Translations under genes and position numbers: made by a program
The notes under the pieces: model-generated
The model's input: the letters and a program-made list of their open reading frames with translations, nothing else
The model's database searches: none
What the model was told of the DNA's origin: nothing
NCBI GenBank assembly: GCA_016931955.1
Contig: JAFGDV010000022.1
Location: forward strand, 35,342 to 99,341
Direction: 5' to 3'
Length of the DNA: 64,000 nucleotides
Source of the DNA: Candidatus Altiarchaeota archaeon
GTDB lineage: Archaea; Altiarchaeota; Altiarchaeia; IMC4; QMZM01
In this document: positions 19,033-22,069 of the stretch, piece after piece
Numbering within the stretch: the first letter of the stretch is position 1
Layout of the letters: each line of letters starts with the position of its first letter

Positions 19033-19236
19033 ATGGCGAAAAGACAGGGAAGAAAAATAAAACCAATATATCTTGGACTCCCCTTGCCCATACACGAATA
19101 CATAGAAAGAAAAGCAGACAGGGAGTGCATATCCTCAAGCGAGATACTGAGACAGATCGTGTTAGAGCATTTCAAGACCACAAAAAATTTCGAGATCATA
19201 AGAGAGTGCGAAAATGAACCCCGACACCCCAAATAA
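19033..19236 (+). CDS. ribbon-helix-helix (CopG/Arc-like) DNA-binding protein
   Basis: 'KPIYLGLPLPIHEYIERKADRECISSSEILRQIVLEHF' fits the beta-strand–helix–helix pattern. Start chosen at an internal Met of ORF 19000..19236. Confidence 0.4.
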   Translation: MAKRQGRKIKPIYLGLPLPIHEYIERKADRECISSSEILRQIVLEHFKTTKNFEIIRECENEPRHPK

Positions 19237-22069
19237 AAAAGATATTAGACGGTTTTATGACCTATTAGGCCATAAAGATCAGACAGAAATACGGTTAATT
19301 CCACCCATAAAACAAGAATGGGTGTCCACCGAAAAAGAATTTCTAAGCGTCTGTGAAAGATACAATGGCAAAAAGAACGTCTATGCAGGTCTTAATGAAA
19401 GAAAACTAAACGGCTCAAAGACTGAAGATGTCATATCACTTGAGACCATAATTCTTGACATTGATCCCATAAGGAAACCACAGGATAAAGACGAGGAAAA
19501 ACTAAAAGACCTAAACAAGCATAATGCGACTAATTCCGAGATTGAAAAGACCAGAAAAGACGTAGAAAAAATAAGTGCATGGTACGTCAAACAAGGCTTT
19601 AAGTCTCCATGCATAGCGTTTTCTGGTAATGGTTTTTATGTAATTTCTAAAATTCCACACATAGACTTAAGTGATGAAAACAGAGACACCATACAGAAAG
19701 GCTTAGAATTATTTTGCAAAGAAATTCAAGACAAATTCAATAATGAAAATACTCACATAGACAGTACCTTTGACTTAGCACGAATATACAAAGTCATAGG
19801 AACTCAAGCATTAAAGAAAGAAACACCAGAAAGACCTAATAGGTACTCCCATTTTATCACGGAAAACGATCCAGAACCAGATCAAGCCCTCTGTGAATAT
19901 ATCCTCAGTTTAAGAGAACCTGAAAAGGAAATTTCACAAACAGCAGACAAGGGTATTGAACTTAAGGACTTTGAGTTTTGTTGTAAGTTTGATGACACAC
20001 TAAGAGAACTCTATGACGGTGACATATCAGGGTATAAGTCTCGATCAGAGGCAGAGGAGGGTTTAGTTTTCAAGTTAGTCTATTATGGGTTTAGTGACTC
20101 ACAGATCAGACAAATAATGTCTGGTTCAAAAATAGGCCGATGGAACGAGAAACCAAAGAAAACACAGGATAAAGACATACAGAAAGCCTTTGAGAATGTC
20201 ACAGACCGCTTTGACTGGAATGAGAGCAAACAAGAACCAATAACTTTATCATATTCCACAGGACACTTACCATATTTTAGCGACCTGATGACCGCATTAG
20301 CTCTTTTTGGTAAAGATTATGTGTTAATCGGTAAGTTGCTCTGGTATCAATTAGTGTCTGTGAATATTCCCATAGAGTATAAGCCGTTATGTCTTGGATC
20401 GGTTGAGACAGACTTACGGTTGCATGGGGTTTATGTCTTGAATGCAGGACACGGTAAACAAAACATTAAGACACTCATACAGCGTGTGTTAGGTAATGTT
20501 GGCTTGATTGTATCCACCCCTGTATCATATCACCAAGAGCAACTGATTGGGAAAATACTTAAACGAAGAGAGAAAGACCAAAAGATAGGTGAGGAAATCA
20601 CCAAAATAATACAAAACAAGGGATACTTAGCTGATGACTATCTATTCATAGACGAAGGATATCTTTTTTTCACAAGCACGGAAACAAAATATGAACAAGC
20701 ACGGTCTTATATCGCCACAGCCCTCGATCCTTACCCGAATAACATAGTCTATAAGAAAGCCGTTGATGACCTGAGAGAGCAGGGAGAGGTCTTGAATTAC
20801 GCACCTCATATTGTCATGGGTGTCGCATTACAACCAGAGAGGATACCAGAGCATATTATAAGCAGAGGACTATTGAGGAGATACCTTGTTGTATGGGTTC
20901 AATGTAATGAGGATGACAAGAAAAGAGCCTTTAAGGAAAGGCTTGAGGAGAGAGACACGGAAACAACCAGAAACAATTTTTCGGAATACTTGAAAAGCAT
21001 TCAAGAGAACGACTTTACCCAGAATAAGCAAAGAAAGGTGGTTTTTTCTAAGGAGGCAGTCACCCGAATTCAGGAACTACATACTGAATTACTCACAGTT
21101 GGAGGGAGTATTAACACGAAATGCAGTAACTTTGCGGAAATAGTAGAGTTCACAGCAGAGGACTATCTCATAAAGTTATCGAGTATTTTGGCCATAGGTA
21201 GAGGACACTATACCATTGAAACTGAGGATGTCGAATTAGCATACTGTGACCTATTTGAGTTTTTCTGGTCTTGTCTAAACTATGTGAACTGTATTGTTCA
21301 GGGTAATTTTGACTATGGTAAGTCTTGGATGGGTGCAGGAGAGAAAGAAATTGAGTGCCTTGAATATCTAAATGACAATGAGGCAATATCCTTTGAAACC
21401 TCCAATATTTCGATCACCGACTTTTTAGAATGTGTCCAAGATGTTTATTCTTGTGAGATTAGAACAGCTCAGAGACGCAAAAACCATTTTTTTAAAAGAG
21501 GATGGATTGACCTAAAGAAAGGCCAACATGATTCTAAGGTGTGGTTGAATTTCACCCCAGAATTAAGGAAAAAGCTTAACCGATTCGACTTTTCACAGTC
21601 TGAATATGTGAGGATAGTCACCAAAAACAAGGAAATTTGCTCTAAGAAACTTGACATGTCTGACAGGTCTGACACCTCTGAAAGAGAAAAAGAAATTCCA
21701 GAGATGTCAGAGGTGTCAGAGGTGACAAGTGCATATACCAAAAATTACACGAAAAACACCCCAGAGATGTCAGAGGTGTCAGAGGTGACACCCCCCCAGA
21801 ACCAAAAAAACCTTTCCGAAAAGACAAAAAAACTCTATTCTCTCTGTGAAAATATCATGGACTCAAGTGGCTTAATCGGTAAACAGCGTATCATATCCGA
21901 AGCCACAAAACACCTTAAGTTTCCCAGAAAACTCACAGACAAAGAAAAAGAACGTGAGATCAGGAAACTTATCCTGACTTTGGAAAAAGAAAAACTACTC
22001 ACAAAGACCAGAGATGGCCTTTATGAGATGAAAAAGAAACAAAAAGTTTTGGAGGAAAAAATAGAATGA
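19214..22069 (+). CDS. replication protein: AEP primase-polymerase (prim-pol) N-domain fused to a putative P-loop NTPase, with a repeat-bearing C-terminus
   Basis: AEP motif I 'IILDIDP' (DxD). Motif II 'SGNGFYV'. Motif III 'FDLARIYKVIGT'. Downstream Walker-B-like 'DYLFIDEG' preceded by a degenerate P-loop 'NAGHGKQN'. C-terminal 'EMSEVSEVT' repeats encoded by iteron-like DNA. Confidence 0.65.
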   Translation: MNPDTPNKKDIRRFYDLLGHKDQTEIRLIPPIKQEWVSTEKEFLSVCERYNGKKNVYAGLNERKLNGSKTEDVISLETIILDIDPIRKPQDKDEEKLKDLNKHNATNSEIEKTRKDVEKISAWYVKQGFKSPCIAFSGNGFYVISKIPHIDLSDENRDTIQKGLELFCKEIQDKFNNENTHIDSTFDLARIYKVIGTQALKKETPERPNRYSHFITENDPEPDQALCEYILSLREPEKEISQTADKGIELKDFEFCCKFDDTLRELYDGDISGYKSRSEAEEGLVFKLVYYGFSDSQIRQIMSGSKIGRWNEKPKKTQDKDIQKAFENVTDRFDWNESKQEPITLSYSTGHLPYFSDLMTALALFGKDYVLIGKLLWYQLVSVNIPIEYKPLCLGSVETDLRLHGVYVLNAGHGKQNIKTLIQRVLGNVGLIVSTPVSYHQEQLIGKILKRREKDQKIGEEITKIIQNKGYLADDYLFIDEGYLFFTSTETKYEQARSYIATALDPYPNNIVYKKAVDDLREQGEVLNYAPHIVMGVALQPERIPEHIISRGLLRRYLVVWVQCNEDDKKRAFKERLEERDTETTRNNFSEYLKSIQENDFTQNKQRKVVFSKEAVTRIQELHTELLTVGGSINTKCSNFAEIVEFTAEDYLIKLSSILAIGRGHYTIETEDVELAYCDLFEFFWSCLNYVNCIVQGNFDYGKSWMGAGEKEIECLEYLNDNEAISFETSNISITDFLECVQDVYSCEIRTAQRRKNHFFKRGWIDLKKGQHDSKVWLNFTPELRKKLNRFDFSQSEYVRIVTKNKEICSKKLDMSDRSDTSEREKEIPEMSEVSEVTSAYTKNYTKNTPEMSEVSEVTPPQNQKNLSEKTKKLYSLCENIMDSSGLIGKQRIISEATKHLKFPRKLTDKEKEREIRKLILTLEKEKLLTKTRDGLYEMKKKQKVLEEKIE
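21651..21790. repeat. intragenic iteron-like repeats within the rep gene
   Basis: 'tgacatgtctgacaggtctgacacctctga' at 21651-21682. Two identical 27-bp inverted blocks 'gagatgtcagaggtgtcagaggtgaca' at 21701-21727 and 21764-21790. Same core as the ori-region iterons. Confidence 0.7.

Follow-up and report, generated by a model that had tools for sequence, protein, structure and literature searches.

The 951-aa open reading frame at 19214–22069 of the analysed DNA (a stretch of 64 kb from a Candidatus Altiarchaeota genome, called the window below) is best explained as the replication initiator (Rep) of a 9.6-kb integrative element. We consider, with moderate confidence, that a Rep-bound candidate origin is built into the rep gene itself, in the form of 9-bp iteron arrays located directly after the winged-helix (WH) domain, and that a second cluster found between genes is a partial duplicate of it. 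The in-gene arrays are to be regarded as DNA that acts in cis, most likely as the replication origin, and not as a feature of the protein.

The element extends from 15768 to 25409. It is supported by a 15-bp att repeat, present in tRNA-Cys and again at 25395, by an integrase gene and by a drop in GC content. Its features are the following:

15768–15782, forward strand: attL, 15-bp direct repeat ATCTCTCCCCCAGCT at the 3' end of tRNA-Cys (15708–15783)
15904–17115, forward strand: tyrosine integrase, 403 aa (Pfam Phage_integrase, E 1.5e-11)
17580–18010, no strand: most AT-rich and least stable DNA of the element (GC 15–28%, nearest-neighbour stability profile)
18133–18205, no strand: intergenic iteron cluster, consisting of TGACACCTC TGACATATC TGACACCTC, a 19-nt spacer, the inverted unit AGAGGTGTCA and one more direct unit
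18225–18881, reverse strand: 218-aa protein with a weak winged-helix match (Pfam HTH_27, E 0.0063, under the cut-off)
19000–19236, forward strand: 78-aa putative ribbon-helix-helix protein (orf78), overlapping the start of rep by 23 nt
19214–22069, forward strand: Rep open reading frame, 951 aa
25395–25409, forward strand: attR, the second copy of the 15-bp repeat, where GC changes from 33–40% to about 47%

In NCBIfam the integrase gives an XerA-like match (E 4.6e-20) that stays under the cut-off, and the matches of orf78 are weak (PHROG Arc-like, E 0.009; Pfam RHH_1, E 0.064). The AT-rich stretch at 17580–18010, a candidate unwinding region, falls within a 1.1-kb non-coding gap. A non-coding RNA in this gap was also considered and was rejected, since Rfam matched no family there. 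The deposited phages and plasmids that were searched contain no real relatives.

We now turn to the Rep protein. The order of its domains is an AEP primase-polymerase (prim-pol), a helix bundle, an MCM-like AAA+ helicase and the WH domain:

aa 1–340 (19214–20233, forward strand): AEP prim-pol catalytic domain and helix bundle (aa ~250–340)
aa ~355–693 (20277–21292, forward strand): predicted MCM-like AAA+ ATPase with helical lid, moderate-to-low model confidence
aa ~710–783 (21341–21562, forward strand): winged-helix domain, pLDDT 84–91, ending in the conserved motif VWLNFTP
aa ~869–951 (21818–22069, forward strand): lineage-specific C-terminal helical tail, low-confidence model, with no homologues in the relatives

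The protein had been read as a prim-pol from its motifs (IILDIDP at aa 79, SGNGFYV at 137 and FDLARIYKVIGT at 186), and the structural comparison bears this out. The AlphaFold model of aa 1–340 has a pLDDT of 91.5, and its top Foldseek matches in the PDB are AEPs only, namely RepB' (3h20, E 7.6e-8), CAPP Prim-Pol, S-2L PrimPol, Prim-PolC, LigD-pol and PriS. The catalytic residues are D82, D84, SGNG 137–140 and D183. In 40 homologues D82 is nearly invariant, while D84 and D183 are invariant; in motif II, S137 and G140 are invariant and SGNG is conserved. The histidine of this motif is present in many homologues (SGNGYH), and is replaced by Y in the window protein (SGNGFY) and by Q in others.

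For the helicase part, an SF3/D5 type had been suggested for aa 350–600, but neither an SF3 fold nor a match to D5_N or Pox_D5 was found there, and the model (mean pLDDT 60.6) instead predicts an MCM-like AAA+ fold followed by the WH domain. In place of the MCM N-terminal OB/Zn domain, Rep has the prim-pol and the helix bundle. Both the Walker-B-like motif and the degenerate P-loop noticed in the sequence (DYLFIDEG at 475, with IDE 479–481, and NAGHGKQN at 410, with GHGK 414–415) are present, and they are invariant across the helicase family, in which D480/E481 and the odd G414/K415 lacking a Ser/Thr after the Lys are always kept. Walker A reads GHGKQ in Rep and GHGKG in the family consensus, and the canonical GxxGxxK[ST] is not matched; without the usual Ser/Thr, ATPase activity of Rep is only predicted. 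Sequence searches gave little: Pfam MCM (PF00493) matches neither the window protein nor 18 other family members, the PDB profile search gave no MCM match, and the PDB searches by sequence and by profile returned noise only. DUF927 has no significant match in Pfam, NCBIfam gave nothing and PHROGs a single weak 'DNA primase' match. DUF3987 (PF13148) scores 23.5 bits, below its gathering threshold of 27, over aa 480–627 only, and is matched by just one of 19 family members, the window protein itself.

The iterons within the gene are arranged in three arrays:

21652–21680, no strand: array 1, TGACATGTC TGACAGGTC TGACACCTC TG, encoding LDMSDRSDTSE (aa 813–823)
21699–21727, no strand: array 2, CAGAGATGT CAGAGGTGT CAGAGGTGACA, encoding EMSEVSEVT
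21762–21790, no strand: array 3, identical to array 2 and in the same orientation, 63 nt further downstream, encoding the second EMSEVSEVT

The sequence-only reading had stated that the gene and the non-coding cluster share a motif that is specific to the element, and this was found to hold within the 64-kb window. With at most one mismatch, TGACACCTCTG occurs 11 times, exclusively within 18133–18205 and 21652–21790, compared to 1.39 on average, and never more than 5, in 100 shuffles of the sequence. The repeat unit is, however, 9 bp (TGACAnnTC / GAGGTGTCA), in tandem triplets and in inverted orientation, rather than the 11 bp assumed. The two blocks described as identical are indeed so and do encode the repeated EMSEVSEVT, but they measure 30 nt and not 27 bp (CCAGAGATGTCAGAGGTGTCAGAGGTGACA, at 21698–21727 and 21761–21790, encoding PEMSEVSEVT at aa 829 and 850). 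Arrays 1 and 2 are mutually inverted around an 18-nt spacer of 22% GC, and they can form a hairpin with a dG of -20.5 kcal/mol (z = -5.9, positions 21645–21735). In the protein, the arrays coincide exactly with a disordered linker: they encode aa 814–859, within a stretch of low model confidence (aa 814–875, pLDDT 23–31).

The intergenic cluster, located 3.5 kb away from the in-gene arrays, also folds as a single strand (z = -4.4). Aligned directly, the two clusters match at 78% for 45 nt, and aligned in inversion at 79% for 48 nt, in both cases continuing past the iterons into the flanking DNA. The inverted alignment takes in TTTTTGGTTC, which lies 8 nt from the array at both places. The intergenic cluster is probably a partial duplicate of the in-gene module, placed where the duplex of the element is least stable nearby. 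An att or recombination site was rejected as a role for the arrays, the att being the tRNA-Cys 15-mer. A scan of viral contigs for the 20-nt array gave two chance matches, neither of them with a rep homologue.

To the question of whether homologous elements keep the in-gene repeat, the answer is clearly yes. In ca 20 distinct relatives (30–38% identity), two to three tandem 9-mers with inverted copies surround an often AT-rich spacer, beginning 8–35 nt past the last codon of the WH domain. The repeat is, in the sequences compared, a hallmark of the helicase family. A strict scan, which demands two tandem 9-mers and an inverted copy, gives 5 matches per 1.2 Mb of shuffled DNA against about one per related locus, and of the 21 matches, 14 lie near the codon that aligns with Rep residue 784, in a zone making up 2.4% of the sequence (binomial P 1.7e-18); a relaxed scan added further loci with arrays. 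It is important to point out that only this test of arrangement separated targets from controls, while simply counting the best 9-mer in each 440-nt segment did not. In 14 of 21 relatives, a 40-mer that is among the least stable in the locus falls within the spacer, and the GC content of the spacer goes down to 6–20% in several. The arrays accompany the helicase gene, also where it stands alone without a prim-pol, and they do not accompany the 218-aa protein. Clear arrays near the gene end are absent in some loci (L007, L011, L034, L038 and others), and in L016 and L017 the arrays are found upstream of the helicase gene.

The 9-mers themselves are specific to lineages (AGGGTGAYA, AGGGTGGCA, CAGAGTGTC, CCTGGGTGA, AACAGAGGC, GAGGTGTCA and others), and each lineage keeps a perfect inverted copy of its own. 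Where two loci share 45% identity overall, no bases are better conserved than those of the arrays, and in closer pairs the identity collapses immediately past the second array. At one locus, L015, the reading frame stops 9 nt after the WH domain, so that the arrays are untranslated; nevertheless, arrays and spacer are 93–100% identical to those of L051, which are translated. This pattern of conservation indicates selection on the arrays at the level of DNA. Translation of the forward arrays gives QGDKGxKG and that of the reverse arrays the unrelated LSPLSP, a difference explained by the symmetry of the DNA alone.

Next, we consider how the site would be read. A residue of the WH recognition helix was found to covary with the core of the 9-mer in a few lineages. 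Three lineages that together make up no clade combine Q with A-GGTG, R is found with G-GGTG, and either S or N with GGGTA; in Rep the residue is Q753. Together with the linkage of the arrays to the helicase gene, this covariation lends indirect support, by sequence comparison, to a connection between Rep and the arrays, and we propose the WH domain as the reader of the iterons. Among the MCM-like helicases of mobile elements there are likewise fusions in which an AEP and an AAA+ helicase are joined to a WH domain at the C-terminus, for which recognition of the origin has been proposed (PMC5862659). In the mechanism that we envisage, Rep would bind the 9-mers via the WH recognition helix, and the opposed arrays would place two Rep rings head to head, flanking the short AT-rich spacer. 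The array region may extrude as a stem-loop. The helicase would then melt the DNA and the prim-pol domain would lay the first primers. The protein encoded by the arrays would be a disordered linker, in which any residues imposed by the DNA site are tolerated.

The most serious alternative, which we regard as unlikely on balance but still deserving attention, is that the true origin consists of the intergenic cluster and the adjacent AT-rich non-coding DNA. The in-gene arrays would then be secondary Rep-binding sites, serving either copy control (handcuffing or titration) or autoregulation, where bound Rep would prevent the 3' end of rep and the genes after it from being transcribed. The most easily melted DNA does lie on that side: the AT-rich stretch is 130–550 nt from the intergenic cluster and does not adjoin the in-gene arrays, and the functional origin of this particular element could for this reason be intergenic. 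In addition, the in-gene arrangement departs from the family norm. Array 1 corresponds in position and orientation to the second array of the relatives, the upstream array is missing and two downstream arrays are added, such that the inverted pair faces the opposite way, with a spacer of only 18 nt. Inspection of 21563–21650 revealed no recognisable remnant of the upstream array of the family. A remote second cluster is also present in two relatives (L005 and L058). On the other hand, most relatives have arrays at the gene end only and no second cluster, and their arrays themselves flank an AT-rich spacer, which means that the conserved site has the anatomy of an origin. Moreover, the intergenic cluster comprises five units, of which a single one is inverted.

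The in-gene site therefore appears to be the conserved and ancestral one and the intergenic cluster an unusual extra copy, which reverses the polarity of the two sites as originally described. With the origin placed in the gene, the intergenic cluster is probably a second Rep-binding site, acting as an auxiliary or alternative origin or as a site for pairing or copy control, and its role is probably comparable to that of the ori and crr pair of phage P4. The P4 alpha protein, a fusion of primase, helicase and DNA-binding domain, binds the same short iteron at two loci several kb apart, and this resembles the two clusters of the window. However, alpha has a primase of the DnaG/Toprim type and also differs in its helicase, neither P4 site lies in coding DNA, and such a two-site layout is rare among the relatives of Rep.

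Another option considered was a role at the level of RNA, such as a 3' stem-loop acting as a stabiliser or terminator of the rep transcript, or one that pauses ribosomes. The strands do fold well, both for arrays 1 and 2 and for the arrays of L001 (z = -5.9 also there), and in most relatives the arrays are located near the 3' end of the gene, with similarity stopping just past them. A hairpin, however, needs no arms made of two to three tandem 9-bp units, loops of 50–270 nt are not terminator-like, array 3 is direct and not inverted, and no rep transcript includes the intergenic cluster. The covariation with the WH-helix residue points, furthermore, to readout of duplex DNA by a protein. We consider this role improbable.

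It is also highly improbable that the binder is not Rep but a host factor, for example Orc1/Cdc6, or the 218-aa winged-helix protein. The gene for the latter ends right next to the intergenic cluster, and archaeal chromosomal origins have inverted ORB repeats around AT-rich DNA. A conserved host factor does not fit, though, with a 9-mer that changes with the helicase lineage across hosts that range from DPANN archaea to methanogens and MAGs labelled bacterial. Binding by the 218-aa protein, one of the suggestions made from the sequence, was rejected, as tblastn found no homologue of it in any of the 85 related loci.

Finally, the possibility that selection acts on an acidic, serine-rich, low-complexity linker, with the likeness to the intergenic cluster a by-product of recombination without function in the DNA, can practically be dismissed: the encoded stretch is indeed a disordered linker, the similar flanks suggest a duplication event, and the GDKG and LSPLSP peptides are also conserved inside the AGGGTGAYA group, but the inverted arms encode unrelated peptides, lineages that differ in both 9-mer and peptide all retain perfect dyad symmetry, L016 and L017 carry their arrays upstream of the gene, and the conserved non-coding copy of L015 largely refutes it. 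Among the three roles initially offered for the in-gene iterons, an internal origin is the one favoured.

An origin inside the initiator gene is of a kind already known, and the present case is best read, by analogy, as a variant of it. The origin of N15 RepA lies within repA. Lambda has its origin iterons inside gene O, with an AT-rich region and in a tolerant linker, where added iterons merely lengthen the protein (PMC7466680), and the oriV of repABC plasmids is located within repC (PMC3155836). They differ from the window in that the systems are bacterial, that O and RepC are neither helicases nor primases, and that the lambda iterons are 19-bp dyads instead of 9-bp tandem units in opposed arrays.

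A counterpart in gene organisation is the Sulfolobus plasmid pRN1 (orf56/orf904), the origin of which is a stem-loop just 3' of orf904 (PMC4234260). Here also, a small gene for a putative ribbon-helix-helix repressor overlaps a large Rep gene, and the order of prim-pol, helix bundle, hexameric helicase and winged helix is the same. No sequence similarity was detected, and the helicase is SF3 in pRN1 and MCM-like AAA+ in the window. Arrays 1 and 2 fold as a pRN1-type origin would, but they do so inside the reading frame; the pRN1 stem-loop lies past the stop codon and lacks tandem iterons, whereas the arms in the window are translated 9-bp iteron arrays.

The pathogenicity islands of Staphylococcus aureus (SaPI) offer an initiator-helicase of an integrative element whose C-terminal domain recognises an origin of short iterons placed immediately after rep (PMC7581432). 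According to that article, which cites Ubeda 2007, this Rep apparently binds the origin as two hexamers. The two SaPI iteron sets around AT-rich DNA reproduce the layout seen in the relatives of the window Rep; SaPI differs, however, in being bacterial, in having a separate primase gene and an intergenic origin, and in that the proteins are unrelated in sequence. As regards the fold, the helicases of SCCmec (Cch/DUF927), the prim-pol-MCM proteins and the AEP-DUF3987 fusions are also MCM-like helicases of mobile elements, from which Rep differs by its atypical Walker A and the lack of a significant MCM or DUF927 match. No embedded origin in these families is described in the literature searched.

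More tentatively, we raise the possibility that an undescribed family of MCM-like initiator-helicases constitutes a self-contained rep-ori cassette, with the origin held in the codons of a disordered tail and a two-site version in the window. The helicase family comprises ca 360 clusters at 50% identity, in mobile elements of Altiarchaeota, DPANN archaea, methanogens, ANME and a few MAGs labelled bacterial. If this were the case, loading of Rep on its own reading frame would couple initiation to the transcription of rep and the downstream genes, giving a built-in feedback, and the element in the window would have evolved both an in-gene origin and an intergenic, crr-like copy beside an unwinding region.

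Beyond a few models from Sulfolobus and haloarchaea, hardly anything is known about where archaeal plasmids, integrated elements and viruses begin their replication. The present results provide a sequence-level prediction for a whole helicase family, specifying the location of the origin, the domain that reads it and a possible specificity residue, for lineages in which genetic tools are scarce or lacking (Altiarchaeota, Woese- and Pacearchaeota, Methanobacterium and ANME-1). The rep gene with its embedded origin would be a compact candidate for a minimal replicon, which could seed shuttle vectors. In addition, the helicases fused to prim-pols gain an MCM-like clade that is uncharacterised and has an unusual Walker A. 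The arrays would, furthermore, represent a natural overlapping code, in which an array of DNA-binding sites shapes a disordered linker, and which occurs both translated and untranslated in close relatives.

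The window comes from a Candidatus Altiarchaeota MAG, in which the 951-aa protein Rep, 100% identical to P0001, bears the name JW778_04005; its gene lies in an integrated element. The final 15 nt of a tRNA-Cys gene, ATCTCTCCCCCAGCT (15768-15782), are repeated at 25395-25409, and between the two copies the GC content drops from about 47% to 33-40%. The repeat and the fall in GC content thus define an integrated element of 9.6 kb, bounded by the two 15-nt copies. Its genes follow the order integrase, a 1.1-kb gap, intergenic iterons, 218-aa gene, 78-aa ORF, rep and small genes, and the stretch of lowest duplex stability in the element (17580-18010, GC 15-28%) lies in the non-coding gap:

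15708-15783, tRNA-Cys gene, with the tyrosine integrase gene next to it
18133-18205, intergenic iteron cluster: three units in tandem and, past a 19-nt spacer, an inverted unit and another direct one
minus strand, 218-aa gene with a weak winged-helix match
19000-19236, plus strand, 78-aa ORF overlapping the start of rep by 23 nt, with weak Arc/RHH matches (PHROG Arc E 0.009, Pfam RHH_1 E 0.064)
19214-22069, plus strand, rep ORF, 951 aa
21652-21680, in-gene array 1: TGACATGTC TGACAGGTC TGACACCTC
21699-21727, in-gene array 2, in opposite orientation to array 1: CAGAGATGT CAGAGGTGT CAGAGGTGACA
21762-21790, in-gene array 3, which repeats array 2 exactly and in the same orientation

The overlapping 78-aa ORF and rep mirror the orf56 (CopG)-orf904 operon of pRN1. 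No capsid-like match was found among several small genes downstream of rep, and Rfam matched only the tRNA.

All Rep motifs quoted in the sequence-only reading were found in the ORF, namely IILDIDP at residue 79, SGNGFYV at 137, FDLARIYKVIGT at 186, NAGHGKQN at 410 and DYLFIDEG at 475. Since sequence searches with Rep were nearly blind, with almost no informative matches, structures were predicted. For residues 1-340 (mean pLDDT 91.5) the best PDB matches are all archaeo-eukaryotic primases (AEPs), that is, the RepB' primase (E 7.6e-8), CAPP Prim-Pol and the cyanophage S-2L PrimPol, with further AEP matches to Prim-PolC, LigD polymerase domains and PriS, in agreement with the primase-polymerase N-terminus proposed earlier. 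Across 40 homologues, D84, S137, G140, D183 and R190 are invariant and D82 nearly so, and eight of the 40 match the NrS-1 helix-bundle-domain family. In the alignment, P0003, the homologue encoded at L001, has ca 130 extra residues in its prim-pol N-terminus; two HxTx motifs in this insertion, YHITLK and KHITIAE, hint at a 2H-phosphoesterase (LigT-like) domain.

The model of residues 336-951 is weaker (mean pLDDT 60.6), but its top 50 Foldseek matches are unambiguously all MCM, and the predicted structure therefore makes the helicase an MCM-like AAA+ rather than the SF3/D5 type that had been put forward for checking. The Walker A residues G414 and K415 and the Walker B residues D480 and E481 are invariant across the helicase family, where Walker A reads GHGK[GQN] throughout (20441-20464, Rep residues 410-417; helicase-family alignment A2) and Ser/Thr never follows the Lys. 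A winged helix (WH) at residues ~710-783 (pLDDT 84-91) terminates in the conserved VWLNFTP and is followed by a short helix (796-814) and a disordered stretch (814-875, pLDDT 23-31), the latter being exactly what the three in-gene arrays encode.

Allowing at most one mismatch, TGACACCTCTG has 11 matches in the 64-kb window, all within 18133-18205 or 21670-21790, while in dinucleotide-preserving shuffles of the window the count averages 1.39 and never exceeds 5. The repeat is thus element-specific, as had been supposed, and the two clusters indeed share the 11-bp core, although the true iteron unit is a 9-bp repeat arranged in tandem triplets. The identical blocks noticed within rep likewise exist but are 30 nt long, not 27 (21698-21727 and 21761-21790), each encoding PEMSEVSEVT. 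The intergenic and in-gene clusters resemble each other beyond the arrays and into the flanks: the similarity is 78% over 45 nt when they are compared in direct orientation and 79% over 48 nt when one is inverted. The latter match takes in TTTTTGGTTC, equidistant from the array in each cluster. Because the similarity reaches into the flanks, the clusters are paralogous modules, more than shared words. The exact inverted 10-mer TTTTTGGTTC / GAACCAAAAA (21799-21808 versus 18115-18124) stands 8 nt outside the intergenic array and in-gene array 3, and could be a duplication trace or a portion of a longer recognition site.

An exhaustive search of 1.84 billion proteins yielded 364 cluster representatives of the helicase family, 316 of them at E <= 1e-10. 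Pfam has no family for 18 of the 19 members tested, and the deposited phages and plasmids searched yielded no relative. For comparison, 85 loci encoding relatives with 24-39% identity were fetched, from Woese- and Pacearchaeota, ANME-1, Methanobacterium, Methanosarcinales, three bacterial-labelled MAGs and many metagenomes. At many of these loci the helicase stands alone (530-600 aa), with no prim-pol. L006, L014 and L015, all with typical helicase genes and arrays, belong to MAGs that carry the label Syntrophaceae or 'delta proteobacterium', and two of their contigs are long (824 kb and 48 kb); either the family spans the archaea/bacteria boundary or the contigs are mis-binned.

The arrays recur at the same place in relatives, so that the in-gene repeat is kept in homologous elements. 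At the 3' end of rep in L001 we find GGTGACAAG GGTTGCAAG GGTTACAAC and, ~50 nt on, TTGTCAGCC TTGTCACCC TTGTCAGCC; in L003, AGAGTGGCG AGAGTGGCA is present twice. A strict scan (two tandem 9-mers at least 8/9 identical, plus an inverted copy of at least 14/18 within 300 nt) gives 5 matches per 1.2 Mb of shuffled DNA and about one per related locus. Of the 21 non-redundant matches, 14 lie near the codon that aligns with Rep residue 784, in a region making up 2.4% of the sequence (binomial P 1.7e-18), and a relaxed scan adds L009, L012, L015, L018, L021, L043, L051, L053 and L058. Usually, 2-3 tandem units start from +8 to +35 nt past the WH domain and 2-3 inverted units lie 50-150 nt beyond them. 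In 14 of 21 relatives a 40-mer that ranks among the weakest of its locus lies in the spacer, where GC can be as low as 6-20%; the anatomy is that of two iteron sets around AT-rich DNA. The 9-mer is lineage-specific (AGGGTGAYA, AGGGTGGCA, CAGAGTGTC, CCTGGGTGA, AACAGAGGC; GAGGTGTCA in the window). Inverted 9-mer arrays (17/18 complementary) also occur upstream of the helicase ORF, within small ORFs and not at the helicase 3' end, in L016 (5722-5865) and L017/L074/L075 (4572-4721).

By alignment of the proteins and translated tails, array 1 of the window is placed and oriented like the second array of the relatives, while a counterpart of their first array is absent from the window. The window has gained two arrays of opposite orientation downstream of array 1, and the inverted pair is therefore only 18 nt apart (22% GC). 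Arrays 1 and 2 can fold into a long imperfect hairpin (dG -20.5 kcal/mol, z = -5.9). The intergenic cluster adjoins the DNA of the element that melts most readily. The main alternative, though the less probable one, is that in this particular element the cluster and its AT-rich neighbour are the working origin, and that the in-gene arrays control copy number or block transcription. A remote second cluster of this kind is rare, being found among the relatives only in L005 and L058, and the in-gene site is the ancestral one. We favor the in-gene arrays as the origin, or at minimum as a loading site for Rep; the intergenic copy would be either a second origin, whether auxiliary or alternative, or a site for pairing and copy control. 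In L005 (ANME-1) the layout differs from that of the window: two GTGCGGACC triplet arrays of opposite orientation (1324-1349 and 2778-2812), 1.45 kb apart, both inside the helicase ORF, flank the ATPase core on either side.

Selection on the arrays acts at the DNA level. The arrays are conserved better than any other bases in L006/L013 and L035/L059, two pairs with an overall identity of only 45%, and in closer pairs the conservation extends through the second array and drops immediately beyond. A protein-level repeat is unlikely: the two arms encode unrelated peptides (QGDKGxKG, LSPLSP), for which DNA dyad symmetry is the only explanation, and in L015, where an in-frame stop 9 nt past the WH domain keeps arrays and spacer out of the protein, both are still 93-100% identical to their coding counterpart in L051. 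A role as an RNA hairpin is also improbable. Binding by a host factor or by the 218-aa wHTH protein is hardly to be expected either; the latter has no homologue in any related locus, and the arrays go with the helicase gene instead. As a DNA element the arrays are conserved yet differ between lineages, are closely tied to that gene and do not depend on translation. The earlier suggestion that iterons inside rep could serve as an internal origin is supported.

In the proposed mechanism, the WH domain would read the arrays, the opposed arrays would place two helicase rings head to head, and the prim-pol domain would afterwards prime synthesis. One residue of the WH recognition helix covaries with the 9-mer core, which is suggestive but not proof: it is Q in the three A-GGTG loci (window, L009, L021), which are not a clade, R with G-GGTG in L058, the sister of L021, and S or N with GGGTA.

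The ori/crr of P4 and the repA origin of N15 are among the precedents. Origins within initiator genes are already known in bacteria and phages, and helicase-initiator genes with an iteron or stem-loop origin at their 3' end are known as well. In repABC plasmids oriV lies within repC (PMC3155836), and the lambda origin iterons lie mid-gene in O, additional iterons lengthening O by 13 residues (PMC7466680). For the Rep helicase of SaPI, an iteron origin lies immediately downstream of rep (PMC7581432), pRN1 has an essential stem-loop just 3' of orf904, its Rep being proposed to bind downstream of its own gene (PMC4234260), and in AEP-helicase-WH fusions the WH was proposed as origin recogniser (PMC5862659). 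What is new is the unannotated helicase family, the conservation of the arrangement across archaeal mobile elements, the overlap of the putative origin with the codons of a disordered tail, and the two-site variant in the window element.

Two small genes of the element may be mentioned. A 219-aa ORF (22794-23453, plus strand) has a sub-threshold histone-fold match (Pfam Histone E 1.4e-5, 25.8 bits versus a cut-off of 26.4; NCBIfam archaea_histone E 0.026) and may encode a histone-like protein. A 71-aa ORF just inside attR (25156-25371, minus strand) matches PHROG 661 (E 1.2e-4); among the small accessory genes, it alone has a homologue by tblastn at one of the related loci (L013 11183-11305, 37% over 41 aa).
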